IMG/VR virus record: IMGVR_UViG_3300038443_000660
Coordinates: 66,082 to 130,081 of that record
Source of the DNA: a virus
Lineage: Duplodnaviria; Heunggongvirae; Uroviricota; Caudoviricetes
Length of the DNA: 64,000 nucleotides
Direction: 5' to 3' (one strand)
Below, piece by piece: positions 218 to 41,980 of the stretch. The position numbers were made by a program, and so were the translations under genes. How positions within the stretch are numbered: the stretch's first letter is position 1; each line of letters opens with the position of its first letter. The notes below the pieces were generated by a model. The model saw only the letters and a program-made list of their open reading frames with translations, was not told where the DNA came from and did not search any database.

Positions 218-672
218 TCTGCTATTCCTTGCCCACAATCAAACACAAAAATATTCTTGTCATTGTAACAATTTTTTACAACATTGGGCCGGTCATCAAA
301 AGCCATGAAAATCGGACCATATTTTTCTTCAATTTCATCGACCAACTCTCTCTTGACTTCCCAATCTGGTCTGAAATCATTCTTCTTTCTCATATACATT
401 TCTGTATAATGCAAACCATTTTTTGCCAACCACGCTTCGGATTGTGGGCGTTCATTTTCTGAACGAGCGGTGACAATGAGATTGATTACATCTGGATTTG
501 CGGAAAGAAGTTTGTATAGCAACAATGTTTGCGGAATCGGATCGTCATTGACTGATTCCTGCATAAATTTTTTCCAGTTTTTTGGCTTTTCCTTGATTAA
601 GGGAAGCCGCCATGAACTGTCACTTAATGTTCCATCCAAATCATGGCAACAAATGAGTTTCTTCATTGACAA
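214..672 (-). CDS. HAD-superfamily phosphatase (polynucleotide 3'-phosphatase / nucleotidase-like)
   Basis: 152 aa; N-terminal CCHDLDGTL is the DxDGT HAD motif I; it sits next to a metallophosphatase. Confidence 0.55.
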   Translation of the reverse strand: MSMKKLICCHDLDGTLSDSSWRLPLIKEKPKNWKKFMQESVNDDPIPQTLLLYKLLSANPDVINLIVTARSENERPQSEAWLAKNGLHYTEMYMRKKNDFRPDWEVKRELVDEIEEKYGPIFMAFDDRPNVVKNCYNDKNIFVFDCGQGIAE

Positions 673-947
673 TTGTTTCCGTAAATTTGATTATTAAAAT
701 ATTCCACGATTTCAGGAGAAGCGGTTATCAGAACGAACTCGATATCAGTTAAACCCAATTCATCATCAGTCGATAGTTCTTCTTTGAGTAGTTCTTTTTC
801 TATCTCTATTTGGTTATCGTCCAAAACAACGTCATAGCCAACGAAATGCAAAATTTCAGTCAAAGCAATGTCATAGCCCACGAAATGCAAAATTTCAGCG
901 GTGTTATTTGGATTAACAGCAATTATTCCGGTTAAAAATTTATTCAT
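663..947 (-). CDS. hypothetical protein with internal tandem duplication
   Basis: 94 aa ORF; EILHFVGYD is repeated because of a ~39 bp direct DNA repeat at 841-900. Confidence 0.35.
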   Translation of the reverse strand: MNKFLTGIIAVNPNNTAEILHFVGYDIALTEILHFVGYDVVLDDNQIEIEKELLKEELSTDDELGLTDIEFVLITASPEIVEYFNNQIYGNNCQ

Positions 948-965
948 GTTTTCTAGTGTTTTAAA

Positions 966-1042
966 TGGTGCGACCGTTCGGACTCGAACCGAAATAGCAC
1001 CTGTTATGAGCAGGGGTCATTAACCAATTATGATACAGTCGC
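966..1042 (-). tRNA. tRNA-Met (anticodon CAU; elongator or Ile-lysidine type)
   Basis: Hand-folded cloverleaf: acceptor GCGACTG/CGGTCGC, T-loop TTCGAGT, anticodon loop CTCATAA, CCA encoded. Confidence 0.7.
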
Positions 1043-1331
1043 TTTATTTTAAAATGTAAGTGCAATACTCATGTGTGTCAAGAGATAATAAATCCAGTAT
1101 CCTACTGTTCCCATGCCAATAAAAGCAAATATCGACCCAAAAAACATAAGAGGATACAGAACATTTTCTAAATCTGTTTTAAACATTTACACTCTTTCAA
1201 ATTCATCTGGTTTCAAATCGATATATCGAATCGATTGAGTATAATCCTTGACGACAGCGAAGCCGGTTGGCAAGACAATGCTTGCCAACAACACACGTAA
1301 CCTATTTAGCACCATATTCATACTCTCTGTT

Positions 1332-2096
1332 TCACTTTTGCTTCTTTTTTGGAACCGGGCCTTTTCCCTCAATCCATAGTTCCAAATCTTCAACGGTAAA
1401 CCAACCGAAGTTATTGGTATCCTGTTCGTAAGGATTAAGCCAGTAAACTACCGGATACTTGGTGTCAATATCCGAAAATTTCGAAGACCAACGGGGAGAA
1501 CACGCAAAATACTTCTTACCCGCCGCATTCAGCTTATCATGAATTCCGGTCTTTTCCGACTCTGCCTTGAGCCGAATATTATCATCGATATCTTCATCGA
1601 ATTCCTTGATTTTGAATTCGGGAAGCTTATCGAGGTATACGAAATTCAGACCGGACTTTCCAGTCATTTTTGCGCTGATAAGAGGAACGACACGCTTTTT
1701 CATGATGTTGGTGTAAAGTTCCTCGACAACGGCCTTGTACGGTTCCTCGAAGGCCGCAAGAAGAAACCTGTTTTCATCCCAATAGGAAACAAAACCGTTT
1801 CGTGCGAAATAGTTATATTTTGGGCTAAGATTATACTGCTTAATCAAGGACGCTTCGTCATACCCATAGATACTCGTCATGGTTACGGCGGTGAGGGACT
1901 TCTTTTTGATAAATCGAATACTGTCTGTATTGCTGATTACTCGATCAGCGAAATAAGCGTCTTCACTGGCATTTACACCAAGTGAAGATTTCAACCTCTT
2001 GATGCCCCATTCGTGTTCCGATACATGGTCAAATCCCATCGAAAACCCGACTTCCGTAGGACCAACATCAGACAAACCCAACCGCATATCAATCAT
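1332..2096 (-). CDS. hypothetical protein
   Basis: 254 aa minus-strand ORF with no recognised motif; a TTGACA-type promoter lies just upstream (~2139-2144). Confidence 0.5.
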   Translation of the reverse strand: MIDMRLGLSDVGPTEVGFSMGFDHVSEHEWGIKRLKSSLGVNASEDAYFADRVISNTDSIRFIKKKSLTAVTMTSIYGYDEASLIKQYNLSPKYNYFARNGFVSYWDENRFLLAAFEEPYKAVVEELYTNIMKKRVVPLISAKMTGKSGLNFVYLDKLPEFKIKEFDEDIDDNIRLKAESEKTGIHDKLNAAGKKYFACSPRWSSKFSDIDTKYPVVYWLNPYEQDTNNFGWFTVEDLELWIEGKGPVPKKKQK

Positions 2097-2279
2097 CCTC
2101 TATTCAACTAATGTGTTTGTATTTCATAGATAATATATTGTCAAGACCTTTTATATAAAAAAGAGTAGTGGTTATCCACTACTCTTTCTTCATACGCTCT
2201 TGATGCGTCCATCGTTATCCCAATCTCATTGCAAGCGGTCGCCCCATGTATTGAGTGTGCCGAAGATTGAGCGTATTAT

Positions 2280-2480
2280 CTTTCAAAACCGTTTTCTAAT
2301 TCATACAATCTATCTAATTAACCTAAATGTTCTTAGCTAACCGAAACCGTTTACAAACATTTTAATCATCCTACCGTTTTCTAATTCATACAATCTATCT
2401 AATTAAAAACTAAATGTTCTTAGCTAAAGGAAATCATTCACGAACATTTATCTAATTCCTACTTTTCAAACATAATCTAT
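2280..2480. repeat. iteron-like direct repeats (2 full ~55 bp copies plus a partial third)
   Basis: accgttttctaattcatacaatctatctaatta..taaatgttcttagctaa occurs at ~2289-2340 and ~2374-2428; a related tctaattcctac...aatctatcaatctaa lies at ~2450-2478; the region has no long ORF. Confidence 0.6.
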
Positions 2481-2566
2481 CAATCTAACACACTAGAAAG
2501 AGGAACGGGTTACATGACTTTATCTCCTGTCTGTTTCACTCAATCTCAACTCAACCCTACATTTAT

Positions 2567-2595
2567 TAATATAATCGGATTCTATAGAATGTCAA
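2567..2595 (-). promoter_or_regulatory. sigma70-like promoter (TTGACA-N17-ATATTA) firing leftward into the repeat block
   Basis: Minus strand reads TTGACATTCTATAGAATCCGATTATATTA; it belongs to the conserved promoter family. Confidence 0.5.
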
Positions 2596-2605
2596 CACCT
2601 ATTTT

Positions 2606-3214
2606 TCAATAATATATAATTTTTTCGATGATATCCCACAATTCGGCTTCGTCCATTTTCTTGGAGAATGGGCATACATCGGGAGCAACTACAGGCTTGA
2701 TAATTCTGGCGTAATCTTTGATAATTTCGCCTCTTGTCAGATAAGTTATCGTTGGTTCATGGTATTTAATTCTATGGAATGCATCAGCAGACAAAGCATA
2801 TTCAGAACCTTCGGTCAGACTAAAGCTGCACACCATAGAAATATCAACCTCTTTTAGAAAATGCGGAGGCTTGCCTGCATCTTCCATAGAACACGACACT
2901 TCAAATAATCCCAAATCAGTAAATAACATGGAATCATAAACGAAAATTTCATTAGTCAACGAACCTTTTAGAATTCGACTTCTAAAAGTATATCGGTGGT
3001 CGTGAATTTCTTCATCATCCAGAATCGGCATCAACTCTGGATGATAGAAATGAATTCGTTCGTATTTATTCAGCTTCAATTGAATGAAACCAAGGCCAAA
3101 ATAGTGTGGAGTACCAAGAGTTTTTAGATACTCCACATTATTCTTATACAGCTTGTATTCTTGTAGTTCTATTTCCATCGTTATCATTATCCCTTTTTCT
3201 ATGCTTATCGACAA
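2606..3214 (-). CDS. hypothetical protein with His cluster (possible metal-binding / cupin-like)
   Basis: 202 aa; HFYHPELMP...EEIHDHRYTF; the true start is probably an internal Met (~3178-3187) because of a 70-nt overlap with the HNH gene. Confidence 0.45.
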   Translation of the reverse strand: MSISIEKGIMITMEIELQEYKLYKNNVEYLKTLGTPHYFGLGFIQLKLNKYERIHFYHPELMPILDDEEIHDHRYTFRSRILKGSLTNEIFVYDSMLFTDLGLFEVSCSMEDAGKPPHFLKEVDISMVCSFSLTEGSEYALSADAFHRIKYHEPTITYLTRGEIIKDYARIIKPVVAPDVCPFSKKMDEAELWDIIEKIIYY

Positions 3215-3779
3215 TCAGGTTATTGGTTGAGAATGCTGGCAAAAATTGTGCCCAATTAGGGTCATCAATCACCAATGGATATTTTGCCCGAATTTCAATC
3301 ATTTGAAAGAAAGACGGTTCGAAAATTTTCTTTTTCGGTTGCCACTTACCTACAGGCATGGATGCACCTTTCATCCGGTTACATTCCGGGCAGGATGCCA
3401 CCAGATTGGTCCATTCGGTCTTACCGCCTTTTGACAATGGCACAACGTGGTCATCCGTCATGGTGTTGCGTTGATGCTTTTGCTTTGTCAAAGGCATGTC
3501 ACACCAAAAACATCTTGTGTTATCTCTGTAATACAAGGCTTCTTTCGTCAATCTGACTTTGTTGATGAATTTTTTGGCATGTTTGGTCACAACCACAGAT
3601 GGCCAGTACAGGTCACGCCGAGAGGGCGTTAAAATTGGTCTATCATACCAATAAACGACATCAACTTTCCCTGATAGATATCCACAAATAGCGTCCCTTG
3701 CCAACACTGTTGACAATGGAAAAACTGAATGCGGCATAAATGATTGGTCCAGAACCAATGTCCTTAAATTGATTTCCAT
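3144..3779 (-). CDS. HNH endonuclease
   Basis: CFWCDMPL...DHVVPLSKGGKTEWTNLVASCPECNRMKG is a canonical HNH motif. Confidence 0.7.
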   Translation of the reverse strand: MEINLRTLVLDQSFMPHSVFPLSTVLARDAICGYLSGKVDVVYWYDRPILTPSRRDLYWPSVVVTKHAKKFINKVRLTKEALYYRDNTRCFWCDMPLTKQKHQRNTMTDDHVVPLSKGGKTEWTNLVASCPECNRMKGASMPVGKWQPKKKIFEPSFFQMIEIRAKYPLVIDDPNWAQFLPAFSTNNLIVDKHRKRDNDNDGNRTTRIQAV

Positions 3780-3848
3780 GGTTGCATCTTCATTTTTGAT
3801 AAATAAGACAGAGTATATAACATTTTCCTAGAAAGTTCAATAATAAAA

Positions 3849-5717
3849 ATGTCATTTAAGCATTTCATTACCGAAGCCTCTTTTAATTCCAAAGATGTTC
3901 CAGAAGTAATCAAAAAGGTTTCAAATATCGTATCAGATAAGCTTGGCAAGAAGTTGTATCCATACAATCAAACCGGTTATCAGGAATTGATGTCTGGTGG
4001 AAAAACATATCAATGTTATTTATTCTTCATGGACGACTGTAAAGCAGTAAGATTTAACACAATTAATGGAACTTTTGATTCTATTGAAATCTGGAATAAG
4101 TATAAAACGAATGGTATCGATGAACCGAAATCAGATTTCACTATCCGCCTAGATGGAATGAATATTCTAAAGGTTATTGATTCGCTTGTCAACGTGATTA
4201 AGAAGCCACGAGAAGGAACATATCGCATCAACGTAAACGAAGATTCTGACCAAAATAAGCAGATGATTTTTGAATCAAATGCTGCCGAAGAAGCCGCTAG
4301 ACTTGGATTGCAAAATCTTGGTTATGGTCGATATGGTCGTGAGATTGACGGCGAGATGGTTCAAACACATAGAGTTGATAAGTTGCGTGATCGATTGGTC
4401 GATTTTCAACCTACAGCACCAGAATCCAGAAAGAAGCAAGTCAAAGACCCTCATGACTGGCACATGATGGCAATTAAAACATTTGGTGATACCAAAAATC
4501 TTTCAAGATTATCGTGGTCCGATGTTGAAATCATTGCTGCCAAAAATGGCGTCACTATTCCCGGTTGGGTTAGAGCATCCGGTGTAGGCAAGGGGAAGAA
4601 CAAGACATTTTCTTCTGTTCCATCAGCGCATCTTACGCAACCCGCCGAAACCATGCAGCAGGCCGGTGAACATAAAGGCGTTCAATATTTTGCGAAAATA
4701 TCGCCTCGTGATCCTATCACCAATAAATTTACTTCTGTCAAAGATGATGAATACGCTCAACGCTTGACGAAAATGATGGATGCAGCCCTGAATGCCCCGT
4801 CACACGATGTGATTGAAAAAGAAATGGTCGATCCAGATACACTTTTTGGTAGAATGTCTGACCTAATTAAACTTATCGTCAAAGGCGTTTCTCCATCGTT
4901 GTTCATTTATGGTGGTCCCGGTATTGGTAAAACATTCATTGTTAACAAAACATTGAAAGAAGCTGGTTTGAAAAAGAATCAGGATTACTACATCGTTAAG
5001 GGTAAAATCACACCAACAGCCCTTTATCAAACTCTTTATACCCATAGAAATGGTAATACTATGTTGGTGTTTGACGATGCCGACTCCGCATTTAGAACAG
5101 AAGATTCAGCAAATATTTTGAAAGCCGCTCTTGATTCGTATGAAGAAAGAGAAATTTCATATTCATCCGCCAGAACCATTAACGTAGATAAGTGGTCTGA
5201 TGAAAAACGTGAAGCATATGAAGCTAAACTAGATAAGCATTTGTTGTCTATCGGTGATGACGATGACGATGACGATCTTGAAGACGATGACGATTTTGGT
5301 GCCGATGACAATGCGGCCTTTCCCGGCAATGGTCGTGGTATGAATAAAGGTGAAAAAAAGAAAAAGAAAAAAGAAGAAAAGATAACCAAACTTCCTTCAA
5401 AATTCAAATTCGATGGAAAAATCATCTTCATTTCAAACTTGGCTAGGGACCAAGTTGACGACGCTGTTCTTTCTCGTTCATATAAGATTGATATGGAAAT
5501 GACGGCTGAACAACGCTTCAAGCGCATGGAAAGCATTCTGCCGTATGTTGTACCAGAAGTTGAAGATACAGAGTTGAAAAAGCGTGTCATGGAAGCAATC
5601 AAAGTTAACCACAAGCTTGGTAAACTTGACCTTCCATCCATGAGAATGTTTGAATCTGGTATTAAAGTTGCAGCTTCTGGTTTACCTAACTGGAAGGAAC
5701 TATTAGATTATATCTAA
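3849..5717 (+). CDS. AAA+ ATPase with ~300-aa N-terminal domain of unknown function and poly-Asp/poly-Lys linker
   Basis: Walker A GGPGIGKT, Walker B MLVFDDAD and sensor region AVLSRSYKID; DDDDDDDLEDDDD then KKKKKKEEK; one of only two plus-strand genes. Confidence 0.75.
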   Translation: MSFKHFITEASFNSKDVPEVIKKVSNIVSDKLGKKLYPYNQTGYQELMSGGKTYQCYLFFMDDCKAVRFNTINGTFDSIEIWNKYKTNGIDEPKSDFTIRLDGMNILKVIDSLVNVIKKPREGTYRINVNEDSDQNKQMIFESNAAEEAARLGLQNLGYGRYGREIDGEMVQTHRVDKLRDRLVDFQPTAPESRKKQVKDPHDWHMMAIKTFGDTKNLSRLSWSDVEIIAAKNGVTIPGWVRASGVGKGKNKTFSSVPSAHLTQPAETMQQAGEHKGVQYFAKISPRDPITNKFTSVKDDEYAQRLTKMMDAALNAPSHDVIEKEMVDPDTLFGRMSDLIKLIVKGVSPSLFIYGGPGIGKTFIVNKTLKEAGLKKNQDYYIVKGKITPTALYQTLYTHRNGNTMLVFDDADSAFRTEDSANILKAALDSYEEREISYSSARTINVDKWSDEKREAYEAKLDKHLLSIGDDDDDDDLEDDDDFGADDNAAFPGNGRGMNKGEKKKKKKEEKITKLPSKFKFDGKIIFISNLARDQVDDAVLSRSYKIDMEMTAEQRFKRMESILPYVVPEVEDTELKKRVMEAIKVNHKLGKLDLPSMRMFESGIKVAASGLPNWKELLDYI

Positions 5718-8663: not shown

Positions 8664-9641
8664 TTATGCAGCTTCGGCCATTTCCAAAGCAAGGTTCAGC
8701 GCTCGAACTTTCAGGTCACGAGTCGTACCATACCATGCGTTGTTGAGCCGGTTTTCTTGGGAACGGCCAAGCTGGTGGTCAGACATATAGGTGATGGTAT
8801 TGAAAAGCTGCCAATACGTCCCTTCACCAAGTTCAGCGCCGGGTTGCGTTTCCATGAATTCCAACGCCTTGATTGCGTTCCTAGAACCTTTCTCTTTCTT
8901 TTCTTCGTCCTTGGAATTGGAAGGAAATAGCTTCTGGAAGTATTCCTTGACCAAATCCTTCTTGTATTTCTTTGTAATCAGGAATTCAGCCCGCTCACGG
9001 TATTCAGTCAGATTTTCCTTGGCGGCGAACAGAGTTTCTTTGACCACTTCCGGGTCAAATTTCTGGTCATGGTTCATCTTGACAATTTTCGCTGATGCCT
9101 TGGAAAGGGCGAGGGTTAGTGTATTATTGCACACCACTCGCACGTCCGTCTGGTCAACGATGATTGCTCGACCAAATTCATGAGGATTAGAAAACAGAAG
9201 GTAATCCTCAATCACGTCTTCCTTGTTACCAAAGCGAAGCCGGAATTTTTCCTTCGTCTTCGCCAGTGCCCAAGTACGGCGTCCTTTGCAAATCGAACCG
9301 GCAGTGTTCATTTCCAATTCGCCAGCCCGAACGAATTCATCGAAAAATTCGAACGCCTTTTCATTCTGCAAAGGTTCCCAATTATCAGGAACAAAAGTCA
9401 GAATCGAATTGTCTGTGTCACGAACAAGCGCCGTCATGGTCGTCTGCCGCAGGTCATCTCCGTTCTTCATATACAGTGGCTGTTTAGAGACGGTCCAGTC
9501 CAATCCAGCAGCTACCAGCATTTCATGTGGTGTCAGGTCATTGGAAACCTTCGTACCCAAACCGTGCCAGCACGGTTCACCTGAATACGCCATGGATGCT
9601 TTTCCGCCAACCATTTCAAGATTATGAGACATTATGTTCAC
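8664..9641 (-). CDS. DUF932 / phage-plasmid-like protein (TIGR03299-type)
   Basis: 325 aa with the family's length and overall pattern (N-terminal MNIMSHNL...PCWHGLG); flanked by a promoter and a terminator; GC-richer than its surroundings. Confidence 0.5.
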   Translation of the reverse strand: MNIMSHNLEMVGGKASMAYSGEPCWHGLGTKVSNDLTPHEMLVAAGLDWTVSKQPLYMKNGDDLRQTTMTALVRDTDNSILTFVPDNWEPLQNEKAFEFFDEFVRAGELEMNTAGSICKGRRTWALAKTKEKFRLRFGNKEDVIEDYLLFSNPHEFGRAIIVDQTDVRVVCNNTLTLALSKASAKIVKMNHDQKFDPEVVKETLFAAKENLTEYRERAEFLITKKYKKDLVKEYFQKLFPSNSKDEEKKEKGSRNAIKALEFMETQPGAELGEGTYWQLFNTITYMSDHQLGRSQENRLNNAWYGTTRDLKVRALNLALEMAEAA

Positions 9642-13646: not shown

Positions 13647-14067
13647 TTGTAAACATCCTCAATTCATTTCTCTTGGCCATCAGTAGTTTTCCAAGATGAT
13701 TGTGACCGACACCATCACAAACGCCCCAAAATTTATCTCCCCATGTGTTCCCCTCTACCAATTCTTCATCGCCCGTCGCTAGTAATTTGTCGGCTAATTC
13801 TCGATCTTCAAATTTGAAATTCAGCCACATGCACATGACCGGAATTTTTATTTTATCCCAATCTTTTCGCATATCGCAAAACTGGCCAAGTATCTTAGCT
13901 TTACCCGGCGTTGGTGCGTTTCTGATTTCTTCCCGTTGGGCTTTGTTTCTGGTCTTACATGCCTGATATCCATGTTCAACGGTAGGATATAATTTACCAC
14001 CAAACACGATTGGTGATTCGTAAAAATTTGATAAGAAGCGATATTCGCCGTGGAAATTGTCAATCAT
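13639..14067 (-). CDS. NADAR-domain protein (YbiA-like N-glycosidase / ADP-ribose processing)
   Basis: FLSNFYESPIVFGGKLYPTVEHGYQACK...GNTWGDKFWGV is the NADAR/DUF1768 signature. Confidence 0.65.
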   Translation of the reverse strand: MIDNFHGEYRFLSNFYESPIVFGGKLYPTVEHGYQACKTRNKAQREEIRNAPTPGKAKILGQFCDMRKDWDKIKIPVMCMWLNFKFEDRELADKLLATGDEELVEGNTWGDKFWGVCDGVGHNHLGKLLMAKRNELRMFTNG

Positions 14068-15088
14068 TTTTTAATTCGTTGATTTCTTTGGCGTTTCCGA
14101 AAAACCAATGGGTAGCGGTTTGAACATGGTTTTCCCTGACATATTTCCCGACATTATTACGAAAATCTCTCCACAAGAAATCCCCCGCTCGTCGGATGAC
14201 AAAGCCTTCCACGTTGGCGGATTTTCCGTTAACTTCTCGGATGATTCTTTCAAGTTCTTTTTCGTCATATTTTCCTCGATACAGAATAGGAACGTGAGTG
14301 ATTCCTAATAGATTGAACCATTCTACAGTTTCATCCCATGGCAGACATCTCAAACCATGCCAAATAGAGAACCCCATGAGATATGACGGTAGATTATCAT
14401 ATTTGATTGAGTGTTTGGCATATAAATTTTCCGCACAAATCCGCCAATCATCCGGCAAGTCATAGGCAAAATTTTGTGCGAAATTTTTTGTCCAATCTCT
14501 GGACCAGTGATTGCGACCATCCACGGAACGAGCATGGATATATCCGTCCGAATAAATTGTGGTATTTTCACCATCCATTTTTTCGGTAATGACAACATCT
14601 TGACCGTGGAAAAAGTCCATGGATTTCATCATGCGGTCATCATCATTCATGCCGGGAGACATAACGACATGATAAGTCCGTGGGTACTTCATTCTGGTAG
14701 TGTATAAATCAAGAACACCACCTTGTTTCAAAATCTTTTGGACAGATTCGTCATCAAACAATTCGCCACGAACACGCTGCCCATTTTCTAAAACAATATC
14801 TCCCCATTTTGTGTAGGAAACATCGGAATAAAAATGTTCTGGCAAAGCAGGTTTCAATATGCCTGCATATTCTCTGATTTGCTCGACAGATATTAATGTT
14901 TGTTCACATTCAATATGATGCTTTTCACAAACGGAAGCGCCGTTTTCGAGATAGTAGCCGCCATCAGAGAACAATCGCCTTTCCAATATATGGTGAGCGT
15001 CAACAGCATCTTCACCACAGACAACGCATTTATGGTTGTCTCTGGCAAACACACCTTCTCTAAAATCGTCTCTGGACAGTAGTTTCAT
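14060..15088 (-). CDS. HNH endonuclease domain fused to RNA-ligase (Rnl-family nucleotidyltransferase) domain
   Basis: N-term HKCVVCGEDAVDAHHILERR...CEKHH (HNH); then EKMDGEN (KxDG motif I), VEGFVIRR (motif IV) and NVGKYVRENH (motif V). Confidence 0.55.
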   Translation of the reverse strand: MKLLSRDDFREGVFARDNHKCVVCGEDAVDAHHILERRLFSDGGYYLENGASVCEKHHIECEQTLISVEQIREYAGILKPALPEHFYSDVSYTKWGDIVLENGQRVRGELFDDESVQKILKQGGVLDLYTTRMKYPRTYHVVMSPGMNDDDRMMKSMDFFHGQDVVITEKMDGENTTIYSDGYIHARSVDGRNHWSRDWTKNFAQNFAYDLPDDWRICAENLYAKHSIKYDNLPSYLMGFSIWHGLRCLPWDETVEWFNLLGITHVPILYRGKYDEKELERIIREVNGKSANVEGFVIRRAGDFLWRDFRNNVGKYVRENHVQTATHWFFGNAKEINELKND

Positions 15089-15266: not shown

Positions 15267-15908
15267 TCACTGAATGTATAGAGTTGGGTAGGCAAGGAAG
15301 GCGGTCCATGCCGCCGTCCCATTCTTCTTCAAGTGACGGAGCCGCCCCTTGATTTCCGAAAGCTTGAACTTCGGCTTGATATCAGCCTCGATGTTAGCCA
15401 TATAGGTCCAAACAACATCCGTGTACCGACCCTTAGCATCCTTGGCATCACTCATGGCGATACCGACCTTCTGGACACGAGTCTTGCTCCACTCGGAATA
15501 TCCACCGTAAACTCGTTCAGGACCAACCCAGAACAGAACACCGGTAGTGCCGACCGGAACCTTGCGGCCCTTGACAACCGTAACAGTATCACCCTTTACA
15601 GGCTTACGGAGTGCAGCAAGATATCCGGCAAAAACATCACGGCGAAGCTTCTTATAAGCCCAAGCATCAGCCTTGGCCTTATTCTCGGCAGTAACATCAA
15701 GAGAGGCAGTACCACCACCAGCGAACCGAGTCGTTGCATACTCATACTTAGTGATTTTCTGGTTCTCGTCATCCCATGCAATTACATAGAAATCCGAGTC
15801 GTGATAGCCGTTATACTCACGCATGGCGATAACACCGTCCTGAAACAGAACCTTCTCACCACCGTCACGATTAGGCATATAAACAGGCATGACAATCTCC
15901 ATTTCCAA
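15267..15908 (-). CDS. hypothetical protein
   Basis: 213 aa, GC-richer ORF; promoter-like TTGACA at 15954-15959. Confidence 0.45.
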   Translation of the reverse strand: MEMEIVMPVYMPNRDGGEKVLFQDGVIAMREYNGYHDSDFYVIAWDDENQKITKYEYATTRFAGGGTASLDVTAENKAKADAWAYKKLRRDVFAGYLAALRKPVKGDTVTVVKGRKVPVGTTGVLFWVGPERVYGGYSEWSKTRVQKVGIAMSDAKDAKGRYTDVVWTYMANIEADIKPKFKLSEIKGRLRHLKKNGTAAWTAFLAYPTLYIQ

Positions 15909-16703: not shown

Positions 16704-16780
16704 TTGGTGCCAGATTGTGGTTTCGATCCACATCCTATAGTTCTTCAAACTATCGCTTCTACCAAGTTAGCTTATCTGGC
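16704..16780 (-). tRNA. tRNA-Phe (GAA)
   Basis: Acceptor GCCAGAT/ATCTGGC, anticodon loop TTGAAGA, T-loop TTCGAAA-like (GGATCGAAACC), CCA encoded. Confidence 0.65.
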
Positions 16781-16782
16781 AT

Positions 16783-16865
16783 TGGTGCTGGTGGAGAGAC
16801 TCGAACTCCCGATGTTTGTATGACGCCTTACAAGAGCGTTGCAGTCGCCGCTGTGCCACACCAGC
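16783..16865 (-). tRNA. tRNA-Thr (UGU), atypically long (83 nt)
   Basis: Acceptor GCTGGTG/CACCAGC, anticodon stem ACGCT/GGCGT with loop CTTGTAA, T-loop TTCGAGT; 12-nt variable region. Confidence 0.5.
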
Positions 16866-16904: not shown

Positions 16905-16957
16905 TAGATAAATGGGAGAAGTGTTTAATTTCTCCCATTTATCTTGGTTAGCAAAGG

Positions 16958-17494
16958 TTAACGGCGACCCTTGCCCTTATCGCCCTTATGCCCATTATTG
17001 GAATTATCCTTATCAACCTGTCCCGGAGGGCCGGAATGATGGTGATTTTTATCACCATAGCCGTTACCGGGCTTATCCCTATCGGGCGTGTTCGCATGAC
17101 CATGACCATGACCATGATTACCAGCGTGACCATGATTACCATGGTTTCCGTGATTGCCGTGGTTTCCATGATTACCATGATGGTCGTGATGACCGTGGCT
17201 GTGATGCCCATGATGGCCATGGTGGCCATGATGTCCGTGTCCATGTCCCGGATTTGTAGGCCCGTTTCCGTCATCACCGCCGCCAGAACCATCGTCACCA
17301 CCGGACGGGTCTGTTGGGCTAGTCGGACTGGCTACTGCATTACGAACGGCTGGATGGTCCCCAGAGCGAACGCAACGCATATCATGATACGGCTTGGCAA
17401 GACACTCGTAGCTGACATTCGGACCAGCGAACGCATATCCGGTAACGAACAGAGTTGCGACACAACTCATTACAAACACAAAAAACTTGTTCAT
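16958..17494 (-). CDS. secreted histidine-rich (HGH/GNH repeat) protein
   Basis: Signal peptide MNKFFVFVMSCVATLFVTGYAFA; then HGHGHHGHHGHHGHHSHGHHDHHGNHGNHGNHGNHGNHGH encoded by GC-rich 15-nt tandem DNA repeats. Confidence 0.6.
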   Translation of the reverse strand: MNKFFVFVMSCVATLFVTGYAFAGPNVSYECLAKPYHDMRCVRSGDHPAVRNAVASPTSPTDPSGGDDGSGGGDDGNGPTNPGHGHGHHGHHGHHGHHSHGHHDHHGNHGNHGNHGNHGNHGHAGNHGHGHGHANTPDRDKPGNGYGDKNHHHSGPPGQVDKDNSNNGHKGDKGKGRR

Positions 17495-17629
17495 ACTCAC
17501 TTCTCCATCATTTTCGTGTTTCAAAATGAAACACTAGTACATGACTCGTACCATTACGAGTCATTAGTTCACATATATACGAGAAATCTATAAATTACAA
17601 GTGTTCTCTTATAATATGGTAAATATTAT

Positions 17630-17941
17630 TTACCACAAATCATAGTTGGTTAAGTCGAATTTTTCACCGGATGAATGTTCGACAACATAGATAACCCCAA
17701 TTGAAGTAGGAGTCATCTGATAAGTAAACTCACCACCGATAGCGCCCAATTCCTCAATCGGAACTTCGACTTTCTTTTTCCAAGTTTGGAATTTTTTCAG
17801 AGTGGCTTTATCCACTTGAATCGTCAGACCGCAGAAGTCCATATCAACTTGATTGGCAATTTTCTTTTTTAATTTTTCCTTGCGGTCAGGGGAAAACAAC
17901 TCAACTAACTTGTTTAATTTTTTTGTCATAATTATCACCAA
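17630..17941 (-). CDS. hypothetical protein
   Basis: 103 aa ORF. Confidence 0.4.
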   Translation of the reverse strand: MVIIMTKKLNKLVELFSPDRKEKLKKKIANQVDMDFCGLTIQVDKATLKKFQTWKKKVEVPIEELGAIGGEFTYQMTPTSIGVIYVVEHSSGEKFDLTNYDLW

Positions 17942-26545: not shown

Positions 26546-26777
26546 AGAAGCGTGTGTTTTTCTGGAATTTCGTAATATTTCATTGAATTATTATATTCCA
26601 ATATCAGCCAACGTTAAAATGGGCGTCGAACCCATGTTTCCAGTTATCCAACCGGTGTCCTATCCACCTAGACGATTTAACTCAATGCAATCTTAGATCG
26701 GCAAATCCATTTCATGCATCGTGGCGACTGAACTATTTAAACATTGCCGTGTAGAAATAGTTCAATTCTGTTGTTGT

Positions 26778-41068: not shown

Positions 41069-41980
41069 TTAATTACCGTATTCCGACACGATAGAAGCCT
41101 TGGCACGGTTCATGTACTTAATGAAATCACCCAAAGCCTTTTCATTCTGAAACTTTTCGGGGTTGATGTATACACCAGCCAACCACGATACAGTTTCACG
41201 CTTTCCACCAAAGAAACCCTGCAAATTTTTGTAGGTGCGGGGAATGTCAATGAACTCATAGAGCGGCTTGCCCCGAATATCCTTGGCGTCGTTGAAGTCC
41301 CAATCGGTGGCTTCCGCCATGACAACAGAGTCGGAAAGGTTGTCGTTAGCTTCCTGCATGGTCGAATTATTCAAGCCAGCAGCGATAATCATACAAGTGG
41401 TTTCACCCGATGAAACCGAACCAAGAGCAATATTATCCGGTTCGTTCATCGTTGGAACGTCCTTATACGAAGCATCCTCGGCAATGAAGTTCTGCCAAAT
41501 AGCCCATGCACCAGAGCCTTCCTTACCGATATTGACCGTGAACGGATTACCGGCAGAATCCTTGCCACCGGGCAAATCCTCGATATCGTCAACACCGGAT
41601 TCCTTGTTGCAAAGCACCTGTAGATATTCACGGTGCAACTGGCCGACTTGCTTGACCGGCAGCGACTTATTAGCCCGCTTTGCCAGAACTACGGCGTCGG
41701 GCTGGCCAATGAAGGCATCGCAAGAATCAGGTTCACCGGCAACAACATCGACCGAGCGGCGGATATTATCGAGAGAACCGGCTGATTCGACAACATTAAT
41801 ACGAACGTTGGCCGAACCATTTGCCTGCGAAGCAATCATCTTGCCTGCCTGATTATACGGAAATCCGCTAGAACCAGTGCAGAGAGTGACCGAAGTCGGT
41901 TCGGCGGCGGCAACAGACGCAAAACCAATTGTTGCCGCCAGTGCTGCCGAAACAGCAAAAATCATAGTCTTAATCTTCAT
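41069..41980 (-). CDS. periplasmic solute-binding protein (TAXI/TRAP- or phosphonate/phosphate-binding-like), GC-rich island
   Basis: Signal peptide MKIKTMIFAVSAALAATIGFASVAAA; 303 aa; local GC ~50 percent versus the ~35 percent backbone. Confidence 0.45.
   Translation of the reverse strand: MKIKTMIFAVSAALAATIGFASVAAAEPTSVTLCTGSSGFPYNQAGKMIASQANGSANVRINVVESAGSLDNIRRSVDVVAGEPDSCDAFIGQPDAVVLAKRANKSLPVKQVGQLHREYLQVLCNKESGVDDIEDLPGGKDSAGNPFTVNIGKEGSGAWAIWQNFIAEDASYKDVPTMNEPDNIALGSVSSGETTCMIIAAGLNNSTMQEANDNLSDSVVMAEATDWDFNDAKDIRGKPLYEFIDIPRTYKNLQGFFGGKRETVSWLAGVYINPEKFQNEKALGDFIKYMNRAKASIVSEYGN

Follow-up and report, generated by a model that had tools for sequence, protein, structure and literature searches.

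A fast-evolving jumbo phage gene encoding a predicted exported, disordered and histidine-rich protein

The gene and its predicted product

We analyzed a 64,000-nucleotide (nt) stretch of a Caudoviricetes virus (IMG/VR record IMGVR_UViG_3300038443_000660, positions 66,082 to 130,081; hereafter the window) and focus here on one gene on its minus strand (16958..17494, including the TAA stop codon at 16958-16960), which encodes a 178-amino acid (aa) protein with a long His/Gly/Asn-rich array. The identical sequence occurs on a 242,456-bp metagenome contig of the Joint Genome Institute (JGI) and, in addition, on a number of Logan contigs. Across stretches of up to 19.5 kb the seven metagenomic copies show 100% identity, with the open reading frame (ORF) intact in all of them, and the exact 178-aa protein was called on seven Logan contigs. 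The source is a novel uncultivated jumbo phage with a contig of at least 242 kb, whose nearest cultured relatives, among them Salicola phage SCTP-2, Ralstonia phage RsoM2USA, phages of the Caulobacter CcrColossus/CcrBL9 type and Brevundimonas jumbo phages, are 37-60% identical at the protein level. Judging from the affinities of these relatives and from a GapR-like gene, the host is probably a Gram-negative bacterium, namely a proteobacterium.

The ATG start codon at 17494 is preceded, 8 nt upstream, by a GGAG Shine-Dalgarno sequence (17503..17506, minus strand; the upstream region reads ...GATGGAGAAGTGAGT-ATG). A TTG start at 17524, giving a 188-aa version, was dismissed, as it lacks a Shine-Dalgarno sequence and would place an acidic extension before the signal peptide. 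Residues 1-23 (MNKFFVFVMSCVATLFVTGYAFA; 17426..17494, minus strand) have the layout expected of a substrate of the Sec pathway and signal peptidase I (SPase I), with a positively charged n-region (MNK), a hydrophobic h-region (FFVFVMSCVATLFVTGY; 10-20 residues are typical of such regions) and a c-region with an AxA sequence at positions -3/-1, as judged from the -3/-1 rule and inspection; cleavage is predicted between AFA and GP. The Kyte-Doolittle hydropathy of this region peaks at 2.73 in a 9-residue window, and residues 2-19 form the only confident helix in an AlphaFold2 model of the protein, with a predicted local distance difference test score (pLDDT) of 77-85. The classical Sec-type signal peptide proposed in the original prediction, which was made from the sequence of the window alone, is thus borne out. 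Processing as a lipoprotein by signal peptidase II was also considered and dismissed. In a lipobox ([LVI][ASTVI][GAS]C) the Cys typically stands at positions 15-35, whereas the sole candidate site, VMSC, has its Cys at position 11 and a Met at -2, is preceded by just ~7 hydrophobic residues, and has no counterpart in orthologs, whose signal peptides contain no Cys.

The full protein reads MNKFFVFVMSCVATLFVTGYAFA up to the cleavage site, followed by GPNVSYECLAKPYHDMRCVRSGDHPAVRNAVASPTSPTDPSGGDDGSGGGDDGNGPTNP, the array GHGHGHHGHHGHHGHHSHGHHDHHGNHGNHGNHGNHGNHGHAGNHGHGHGH and the tail ANTPDRDKPGNGYGDKNHHHSGPPGQVDKDNSNNGHKGDKGKGRR. All of its parts lie on the minus strand. Shortly after the cleavage site comes a Cys31-x9-Cys41 loop (ECLAKPYHDMRC; 17372..17404), probably a periplasmic disulfide, and then an acidic Pro/Ser/Gly/Asp linker (residues 42-82; 17249..17371), which was delimited on the translation and is modeled at a pLDDT of ~50 without secondary structure. 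The array itself (residues 83-133; 17096..17248), delimited by its composition and a repeat finder, runs GHGHGHH(GHH)3 SHGHHDH (HGN)5 HGHAGNHGHGHGH and contains 25 His, 17 Gly and 6 Asn in 51 residues, in agreement with the ~50 residues of His-rich repeats that had been proposed. It is followed by a C-terminal tail (residues 134-178; 16961..17095) with a basic end, placed by positional alignment with the tails of orthologs, which includes a segment, DKNHHHSGPPGQ (residues 148-159; 17018..17053), the sole part of the protein that closely matches a sequence from outside this phage.

After predicted cleavage the mature chain has 155 aa, a mass of ~16 kDa, an isoelectric point of ~7 and a grand average of hydropathy of -1.75; it contains 31 His, 36 Gly, 16 Asn, 14 Asp, 2 Cys and 1 Met, with just 7 aliphatic and 3 aromatic residues. 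In a comparison of composition, no second ORF in the window comes near its His or Gly content. Past residue 19 the AlphaFold2 model has a pLDDT of ~50 and no secondary structure, so that the protein beyond the signal peptide and the short Cys loop is predicted to be entirely disordered. A collagen-like (G-X-Y) protein was considered and dismissed, since the (GHH)3-4 and (GNH)5 runs are short and interrupted; the NCBIfam SclB model matches at an E-value of 0.43, with 9 bits against a cutoff of 325. Overall, we consider it very probable that the gene encodes a real, exported and disordered protein.

Repeats of this kind can mislead gene prediction. The locus has four overlapping ORFs longer than 110 aa, including a 114-aa ORF in the +1 frame (16948..17292, minus strand) and a 201-aa antisense ORF from the ORF list (16988..17593, plus strand), and on identical DNA the JGI pipeline called the +1-frame ORF while the Logan pipeline called the His frame. 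These observations would fit a scenario in which the His frame is a repeat-driven artefact and the true gene, if any, is one of these two overlapping ORFs, but we find this scarcely credible. The other frames encode strings of Met, Thr, Val and Ile with no start context, signal peptide or conserved feature, and the antisense ORF runs against the uniform minus-strand gene order. Tandem Repeats Finder detects periods of 6, 9, 18 and 36 nt with 70-100% matches in the target gene and none of the 15-nt tandem repeats that had been proposed for the array; exact direct repeats reach 17 nt at most. All repeat periods, here as in the orthologs described below, are multiples of 3. When the five HGN units (CATGGTAAT, CATGGAAAC, CACGGCAAT, CACGGAAAC and CATGGTAAT) are compared, the numbers of variable sites at the first, second and third codon positions are 0/0/3, and for the HHG units they are 1/0/3. 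In the His frame, nearly all divergence between repeat units is therefore synonymous, a pattern of variation that fits this frame alone.

The orthologs speak to the same question. The frame would be suspect, as the original prediction had recognized, if relatives did not keep it; in the positional orthologs the frame, the signal peptide and the Cys pair are all retained, as is the tail, while their off-frames are featureless Ala/Val/Thr strings with neither a signal peptide nor a conserved tail. Taken together, third-position variation, repeat periods in multiples of 3 and conservation of the frame among orthologs identify the His frame as genuine coding sequence. Automatic gene callers can thus choose the wrong frame in repeat genes of this kind. 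Such +1-frame calls by the JGI pipeline were found on two contigs of the window phage (L006, 12330-12674; L007, 7267-7611) and for two orthologs (L011, 12578-13084; L015, 9260-9889), where they yield Met/Thr/Val- or Ala/Val/Thr-rich pseudo-proteins.

Positional orthologs and the origin of the gene

Relatives were located through the neighboring RNA ligase, and the corresponding contigs were retrieved so that the slot occupied by the gene could be compared across seven related loci. The slot has a fixed order, in which a gene of ~100 aa (17630..17941 in the window, minus strand; PHROG family phrog_26220, E-value 5.5e-10) is followed by the variable position, a tRNA-Thr(tgt) gene (16783-16865, minus strand) and a tRNA-Phe(gaa) gene (16705-16780, minus strand), both tRNA genes being ARAGORN calls. 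The Thr-Phe tRNA pair follows the slot in all six loci that are long enough (L010, L011, L013, L014, L015 and L017). The seventh, L009, ends inside the gene and is therefore partial; its ligase is 85% identical to that of the window phage. In 6 of the 7 related loci a tRNA-Gly gene precedes the ~100-aa gene, and no tRNA-Gly gene was detected at the corresponding site of the window. Five relatives carry a gene in the slot (L009, L011, L013, L015 and L017), while L010 and L014 have no gene there, the slot measuring 43-87 nt.

All five orthologs share an AxA signal peptide, a Cys pair 9-15 residues apart and then a long low-complexity array; among their predicted cleavage sites are SYA before E, AHA before A, AHA before S and ANA before N. 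The arrays themselves are built differently, as T/P/D-rich sequence, (GGNTGGG)n or (GGT)n, and the four complete orthologs continue after the array into a G/N/H/D tail ending in K, G or R. The target is 23-35% identical to its orthologs, mostly in low-complexity columns, whereas the upstream neighbor is 51-85% identical in the same relatives, and Cys31 and Cys41 are the only invariant residues of the ortholog alignment outside the repeats. The target is thus the positional ortholog of a fast-evolving gene whose products consist of a signal peptide, a Cys pair, a low-complexity region and a basic tail.

The orthologs also show how the arrays change. They are 189-260 aa long and carry perfect in-frame duplications, for example 36 nt repeated 2.0-2.6 times at 100% identity, and the array is thus an active site of expansion and contraction on an evolutionary scale. 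It is on this scale that the earlier suggestion of a hotspot for length variation holds. The array of the window phage is older, because its units have had time to diverge synonymously.

A further proposal had been that the gene sits on a GC-rich island and might have been acquired recently from the host. The elevated GC content is real, at 0.523-0.526 for the gene and 0.386 for the window (the figures initially put forward were ~55% and ~35%), with a peak of 0.585 in a 200-nt window; by codon position it is 0.68 (GC1), 0.46 (GC2) and 0.43 (GC3). Using 38 long ORFs of the window as the codon-usage reference, we calculated the GC content to be expected from the amino-acid composition of the protein and the codon usage of the phage. 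This expectation is already 0.490, and amino-acid composition alone predicts ~75% of the elevation. GC3 shows a slight rise (0.433, where 0.337 is expected, a difference of +0.096), which corresponds to ~1.4 standard deviations of the reference ORFs and is exceeded by three other genes in the window. The ratios of CAT to CAC, of GGT, GGC, GGA and GGG, of GAT to GAC and of AAT to AAC all match those of the phage backbone. Since the expected GC is so high and codon choice is native, the island is mainly a composition effect: the high GC is mostly a by-product of His, Gly, Asp and Pro codons and does not mark a foreign insertion. More generally, apparent GC islands can be pure effects of amino-acid composition.

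These results bear directly on the origin of the gene, a question separate from that of its function and compatible with any answer to it. In favor of a recent acquisition from the host, as a GC-rich island carrying a host metal-binding gene, one could cite the local GC of 0.52-0.58 against 0.39, the mild rise in GC3 and the presence of distant family members in bacterial chromosomes (see below). Neither the atypical codon usage and GC3 nor the lineage-specific insertion that would mark a horizontally acquired island was found, and no mobility genes were noticed nearby. The slot is conserved among phages whose RNA ligases are just 51-85% identical to that of the window phage, and the gene is therefore old in this lineage. 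We regard a recent host origin as very improbable and as largely refuted already.

Three other genes of the window came to notice in the same comparison. Two of them, a 213-aa gene of unassigned function that is conserved in relatives (15267-15908, minus strand) and a DUF932-like gene of 325 aa (8664-9641, minus strand), have a GC3 of 0.52 against an expected 0.39, an excess that is synonymous, unlike that of the target. The largest GC3 excess in the window, 0.15 over expectation, belongs to a 303-aa ORF (41069-41980, minus strand) with a Sec signal peptide (MKIKTMIFAVSAALAATIGFASVAAA, followed by EP) and an NMT1_3/TAXI-like periplasmic solute-binding domain (E-value 1.2e-8), which makes it a second exported protein in the window.

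A family of small exported proteins with a shared motif

Direct homology searches with the target returned next to nothing. A megablast search with the 2.5-kb neighborhood and a tblastn search with the protein found no match in 50,697 phage records; scans against Pfam, PHROGs, NCBIfam and PADLOC gave nothing above noise; and a sequence search of the PDB gave no match. A phmmer-type search of 5.8 billion proteins returned a single low-complexity match (P0001), a word-index search did not return the protein, and its exact sequence is absent from a collection of 15 billion proteins. Scans of IMG/VR likewise gave no match, whether the query was the target protein or the RNA ligase by itself, and a metagenome scan with an alignment of the neighboring gene found one distant locus, which lacks the gene. 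Among cultured phages, Salicola phage SCTP-2, the best match of the second RNA ligase of the window, shows no local synteny, and Sinorhizobium phage phiM12 has a homolog of the upstream gene but no equivalent of the target. By these searches the target appears to lie outside every curated family. The kinship with Helicobacter Hpn and HspA that had been raised as worth checking found no support in the 5.8 billion proteins (the low-complexity match aside), the PDB, Pfam or phage genomes.

The orthologs proved more informative. The tails of L011, L015 and L017 share the sequence NNG[HY]GNGDQxAPGNSGDHNNAENSGHSGQGNS...GKGK, and from it a canonical motif, NNGxGNGDQxAPGNSxxxNNAEN, can be read that is complete in these three orthologs and present as a degenerate copy in L013. 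A profile of the N-termini and tails retrieved 29 small proteins, and an exhaustive HMMER search found 274 cluster representatives at E≤1e-3, 44 of them at E≤1e-10. The shared module, (K)GNNG[HWFY]GNGDQ[DS]APGNSxxxNNAEN, spans ~25 residues. Among GTDB species genomes 215 loci carry it, in alpha-, beta- and gamma-proteobacteria, Campylobacterota, Verrucomicrobiota and a few further groups, and so do 65 IMG/VR viral contigs (sequences and loci of this family are labelled P0122-P0290 and L026-L171). Typical members have 80-250 aa; a Sec or lipoprotein signal comes first, followed by a Cys pair, a linker, the motif and finally a basic end. In the small proteins the Cys pair takes the form [E/D]-C-x7-13-C right after the signal peptide, and the linkers are of arbitrary composition, being rich in Pro and Thr (PT), Pro and Glu (PE), Lys, Gly or His. 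No Pfam or NCBIfam model matches the family, and the motif strings are absent from the searchable literature. This widespread and unannotated family is a concrete target for domain annotation. An AlphaFold2 model of one member, P0132, gives the motif region a pLDDT of ~50, and the motif may be either a linear motif or a fold that depends on a ligand or metal.

The contexts of the motif are varied. P0129 and P0132 lie on phage-like contigs and P0136 lies beside a VapE-like/HNH/integrase island in Seohaeicola. In giant surface proteins with cadherin, Big, RTX and PKD domains, the motif is embedded in PT-rich linkers. At a number of Rhodobacteraceae loci (L053, L062, L065, L071, L079, L082, L086, L096, L098, L101 and L105) it forms the C-terminus of proteins of ~240 aa; three of these were scanned against Pfam and have a TadE-like N-terminus with sub-threshold E-values of 0.01-0.06. 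Proteins of ~620-720 aa are encoded near the motif loci L073, L077, L092, L094 and L095 (from Tropicibacter, Sagittula and a Rhodobacteraceae metagenome-assembled genome), and the two from L073 that were scanned are clear TadG-like/von Willebrand factor A (vWA) Flp-pilus proteins. These matches suggest that the motif decorates a minor pilin in Rhodobacteraceae.

The target shares the architecture of this family, with its signal peptide, Cys pair, low-complexity linker and basic C-terminus, and is orthologous in position to three of its members. The motif itself is another matter. When the target tail is scored with a hidden Markov model (HMM) built from 149 motif segments, 465-4953 of its 5000 shuffles equal or exceed it, while L013 passes the same kind of test (0-18 of 5000 shuffles, without null2); against the HMM of a closer subfamily, the empirical p for the target tail is 0.018-0.12. 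The tail can be aligned positionally with the ortholog sequence NNGHGNGDQ..APGNS..NNAEN..GQGNS..GKGK, at an empirical p of 0.018-0.99, which is not significant, and where the motif would stand the target has KPGNGYGDKNHHHSGPPGQ. The target is therefore placed in the family by position and architecture, not by the canonical motif.

One convincing sequence relative was found. P0253 is a 118-aa protein from a 916-bp metagenome contig, with its own Shine-Dalgarno sequence and rho-independent terminator, and consists of a signal peptide, the Cys-containing segment CEEFPWIHGC, a P/S-rich linker, KHGKGHGRGHGGKPGHGHG repeats, the segment DKNHEHSGPPGQ and a NNNGRGHGRGGR end. Its DKNHEHSGPPGQ is identical at 11 of 12 positions to residues 148-159 of the target (pairwise BLASTP E-value 5e-5). 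The two proteins share DKNHxHSGPPGQ, and the variant GDKNHHHSGPPGQ is common to them only; a back-translated search for GDKNHxHSGPPGQ in IMG/VR gave 0 matches. His/Gly repeats stand directly before the motif not only in P0253 but also in L115 (GHHGGGHHGGDHGGKGDHGKGDHGKGDHGKGHG-NNGHGNGDQ), P0186 and L150. We infer that the target is a divergent offshoot in which the preceding NGHGNG-like sequence expanded into the His/Gly/Asn array, and the independent recurrence of His and Gly at this place suggests selection for His there and not pure drift.

The loss or undetectability of the canonical motif also raises the question whether the gene still does anything, since an expressed but near-neutral or decaying ORF, its ancestral motif overwritten by runaway triplet-repeat expansion, would look similar in several respects. 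Two relatives do without the gene, homologs are essentially lacking even in the largest collections searched, and gene callers disagree on its frame. Several features are at odds with decay: the ORF is intact in 7 of 7 copies, with Shine-Dalgarno sequence, signal peptide and Cys pair; the differences between repeat units are almost all synonymous, which points to purifying selection having acted on the His/Gly/Asn sequence since the array expanded and not to recent slippage; and the tail segment is nearly unchanged in as distant a relative as P0253. We therefore consider a gene without function improbable.

Putative function and genomic surroundings

Several groups of characterized proteins offer points of comparison. 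Hpn and HspA of Helicobacter are cytoplasmic nickel stores without a signal peptide and with Cys-rich motifs. Like the target they have a very high content of His in short repeats, and they bind nickel and zinc through His clusters, but the target has a signal peptide and no sequence relationship to them emerged in any search. The T4 protein Sp (spackle) and the lipoprotein exclusion factors Llp and Cor are folded periplasmic proteins of phages with defined targets (gp5 lysozyme and FhuA). The target resembles these moron-type proteins in being small, phage-encoded, predicted to be Sec-exported, accessory and variable between relatives, but no similarity to any of them in sequence or composition was found. 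ZraP is a periplasmic zinc protein with a His-rich stretch. Periplasmic zinc proteins such as ZnuA and PA4063 likewise contain His-rich flexible loops (PMC8561739). In all three, disordered stretches rich in His, Asp and Gly capture divalent metal in the periplasm, as the array of the target may do; there the stretch is appended to a folded domain, whereas the target is nearly all array with no folded domain predicted.

A further resemblance is to SilE and PcoE, periplasmic proteins of plasmid-borne silver and copper resistance, of which SilE is an established intrinsically disordered periplasmic "molecular sponge" (PMC5008109). These proteins are small, exported by a signal peptide, disordered (SilE in its apo form), rich in metal-ligand side chains and encoded on mobile elements. 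Of the properties they share, the target has the export signal and the predicted disorder, and it may bind several metal ions per chain. SilE uses His and Met motifs for Ag+ and Cu+ and is encoded within a sil/pco efflux operon; the mature target has 1 Met beside 31 His and 14 Asp, is phage-borne and has no surrounding resistance operon, and neither homology to SilE/PcoE nor HxxM/MxxH motifs were found in it, given the single Met and the lack of any Pfam or NCBIfam match. To the members of the motif family the target is linked by the signal peptide or lipobox, the Cys pair, a linker of free composition, the basic end and orthology in position to L011, L015 and L017, and it is set apart from them by its lack of a detectable canonical motif, in place of which it carries the GDKNHHHSGPPGQ variant. 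Overall, the target seems most like the known periplasmic disordered metal binders, and would be new in being phage-borne, in being based on His, Gly and Asn, and in its tie to an undescribed motif family.

On this basis our preferred, though tentative, reading (with a probability of roughly 0.45) is that the product of this accessory gene is a disordered protein of the periplasm, with a His array that chelates zinc, nickel or copper. The protein would be exported by the Sec pathway to the periplasm of the Gram-negative host and cleaved after AFA, and its Cys loop would become oxidized there. The array would then act as a multivalent chelator of low specificity for Zn2+, Ni2+, Cu2+ and Co2+ that takes up several ions per chain. 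Produced during infection, the protein would be a metal sponge or buffer of the periplasm, either keeping metal away from envelope proteins or damping metal stress up to the time of lysis. The short C-terminal segment (GDKNHHHSGPPGQ...) and the basic end could provide an added docking or metal-binding site. The 31 His and 14 Asp of the mature chain constitute a very dense set of imidazole and carboxylate ligands, and the HGHGHG, GHH and HGN repeats resemble engineered tags for immobilized metal affinity chromatography as well as the His-rich loops of periplasmic zinc proteins. Because the mature part has a single Met, a preference for Zn, Ni and Cu(II) over Ag and Cu(I) would be expected. If the array does buffer or sequester periplasmic Zn, Ni or Cu, the phage would be manipulating host metal homeostasis from inside the envelope, of which we know of no described example.

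A number of observations weigh against this reading. The His content is 17% in the target and 3-7% in the orthologs, whose arrays are Gly/Asn/Thr-rich or, in L009, Thr/Pro/Asp-rich. What is conserved may thus need only to be exported, flexible and hydrophilic, and the His array may have arisen by drift as repeats expanded. The gene is dispensable, given that L010 and L014 lack it. No metal-homeostasis genes were noticed nearby among those neighboring proteins that were scanned; the neighbors are tRNA genes, RNA ligases, NAD-salvage genes and a nucleotidase. To these points may be added the shuffle result for the canonical motif and the fact that the periplasmic location is deduced from relatives. 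The suggestion of a metal-sequestering secreted protein in the original prediction therefore stands as regards the Sec signal and an array of obvious capacity for divalent metals, and is weakened by the failure of orthologs to keep the His-richness.

Much of the same evidence can be turned toward a different kind of envelope protein, a disordered effector whose Cys loop, C-terminal motif and basic end dock to a pilus, secretin, porin or peptidoglycan of the host, for instance in superinfection exclusion or envelope remodeling, with the array as a spacer of irrelevant composition. This is possible, though on balance we think it unlikely. The idea of a spacer is kept alive by the empty slots and by the Gly/Asn/Thr arrays found in the closest orthologs, as orthologs differ freely in the composition and length of their arrays yet retain the signal peptide, Cys pair and tail. 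An identity of 23-35% beside a neighbor at 51-85% is as expected for genes that interact with the host, and presence in some relatives but not in others is what an accessory gene of the moron type would show. The orthologs carry the canonical motif as a conserved linear element of a stretch with predicted disorder; the motif is common in phages and mobile elements, and is found C-terminally on the weakly TadE-like proteins encoded next to TadG/vWA pilus genes and in the giant cadherin/RTX-type surface proteins. Against a docking role stand the lack of any known partner and the state of the target itself, which keeps only the variant shared with P0253. The link to the Tad pilus consists of sub-threshold TadE matches and gene neighborhood only, and the His/Gly repeats beside the motif in unrelated members imply that composition matters.

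The metal-binding reading can also be extended to the motif family as a whole. In this broader form the target would be the His-expanded phage member of a large, undescribed superfamily of exported disordered proteins organized around a linear motif for binding metal or a partner, represented by NNGxGNGDQxAPGNSxxxNNAEN together with the GDKNHxHSGPPGQ variant. Its bacterial carriers would be Tad-pilus minor-pilin-like proteins, giant adhesins and small lipoproteins, and phages would have captured the motif repeatedly to manipulate the envelope or metal economy of the host, making the product of the target gene the first phage-encoded periplasmic metal sponge. We offer this extension as speculation that is rather unlikely to hold in full.

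The regions flanking the gene have features of their own. The upstream intergenic and 5' region (17495..17634, minus strand) contains three hairpins and folds, over 135 nt, at -40.2 kcal/mol (z = -4.4 relative to shuffles). Hairpin 1 (17618-17634, minus strand) overlaps the stop codon of the upstream gene, hairpin 2 (17541-17564, minus strand) has a perfect 10-bp stem (ATGACTCGTA/TACGAGTCAT) and hairpin 3 (17516-17534, minus strand) has an 8-bp stem; all three are unique within the window, and in the orthologs only hairpin 1 is partly conserved. Between the stop codon and the tRNA-Thr gene, an 11-bp inverted repeat (AAATGGGAGAA, 9 nt, TTCTCCCATTT; 16910..16940, strand unspecified) can be read from the sequence. 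It is not followed by a T-run on the coding strand and was not reported by a terminator scan, and at this locus scans for sigma-70 promoters and for terminators gave nothing above chance.

The window as a whole contains 19 tRNA genes, and almost all of its genes lie on one strand. ARAGORN also lists a tRNA-like gene at 26610-26683 (minus strand) whose anticodon, given as 2 bases (ga), it left undetermined, and made a similar odd call in L010 (12561-12655). Among the protein-coding genes are two RNA ligases, a NadR-like/PnuC pair for the salvage of nicotinamide adenine dinucleotide (NAD), a CCA-adding enzyme and a 5'-nucleotidase. The second RNA ligase (14060-15088, minus strand; phrog_24030, E-value 1.9e-135) has an N-terminal HNH-like segment (residues ~8-70) and is followed by a gene with a NADAR domain, and together these two look like a cluster for RNA repair and adenosine diphosphate (ADP)-ribose metabolism.

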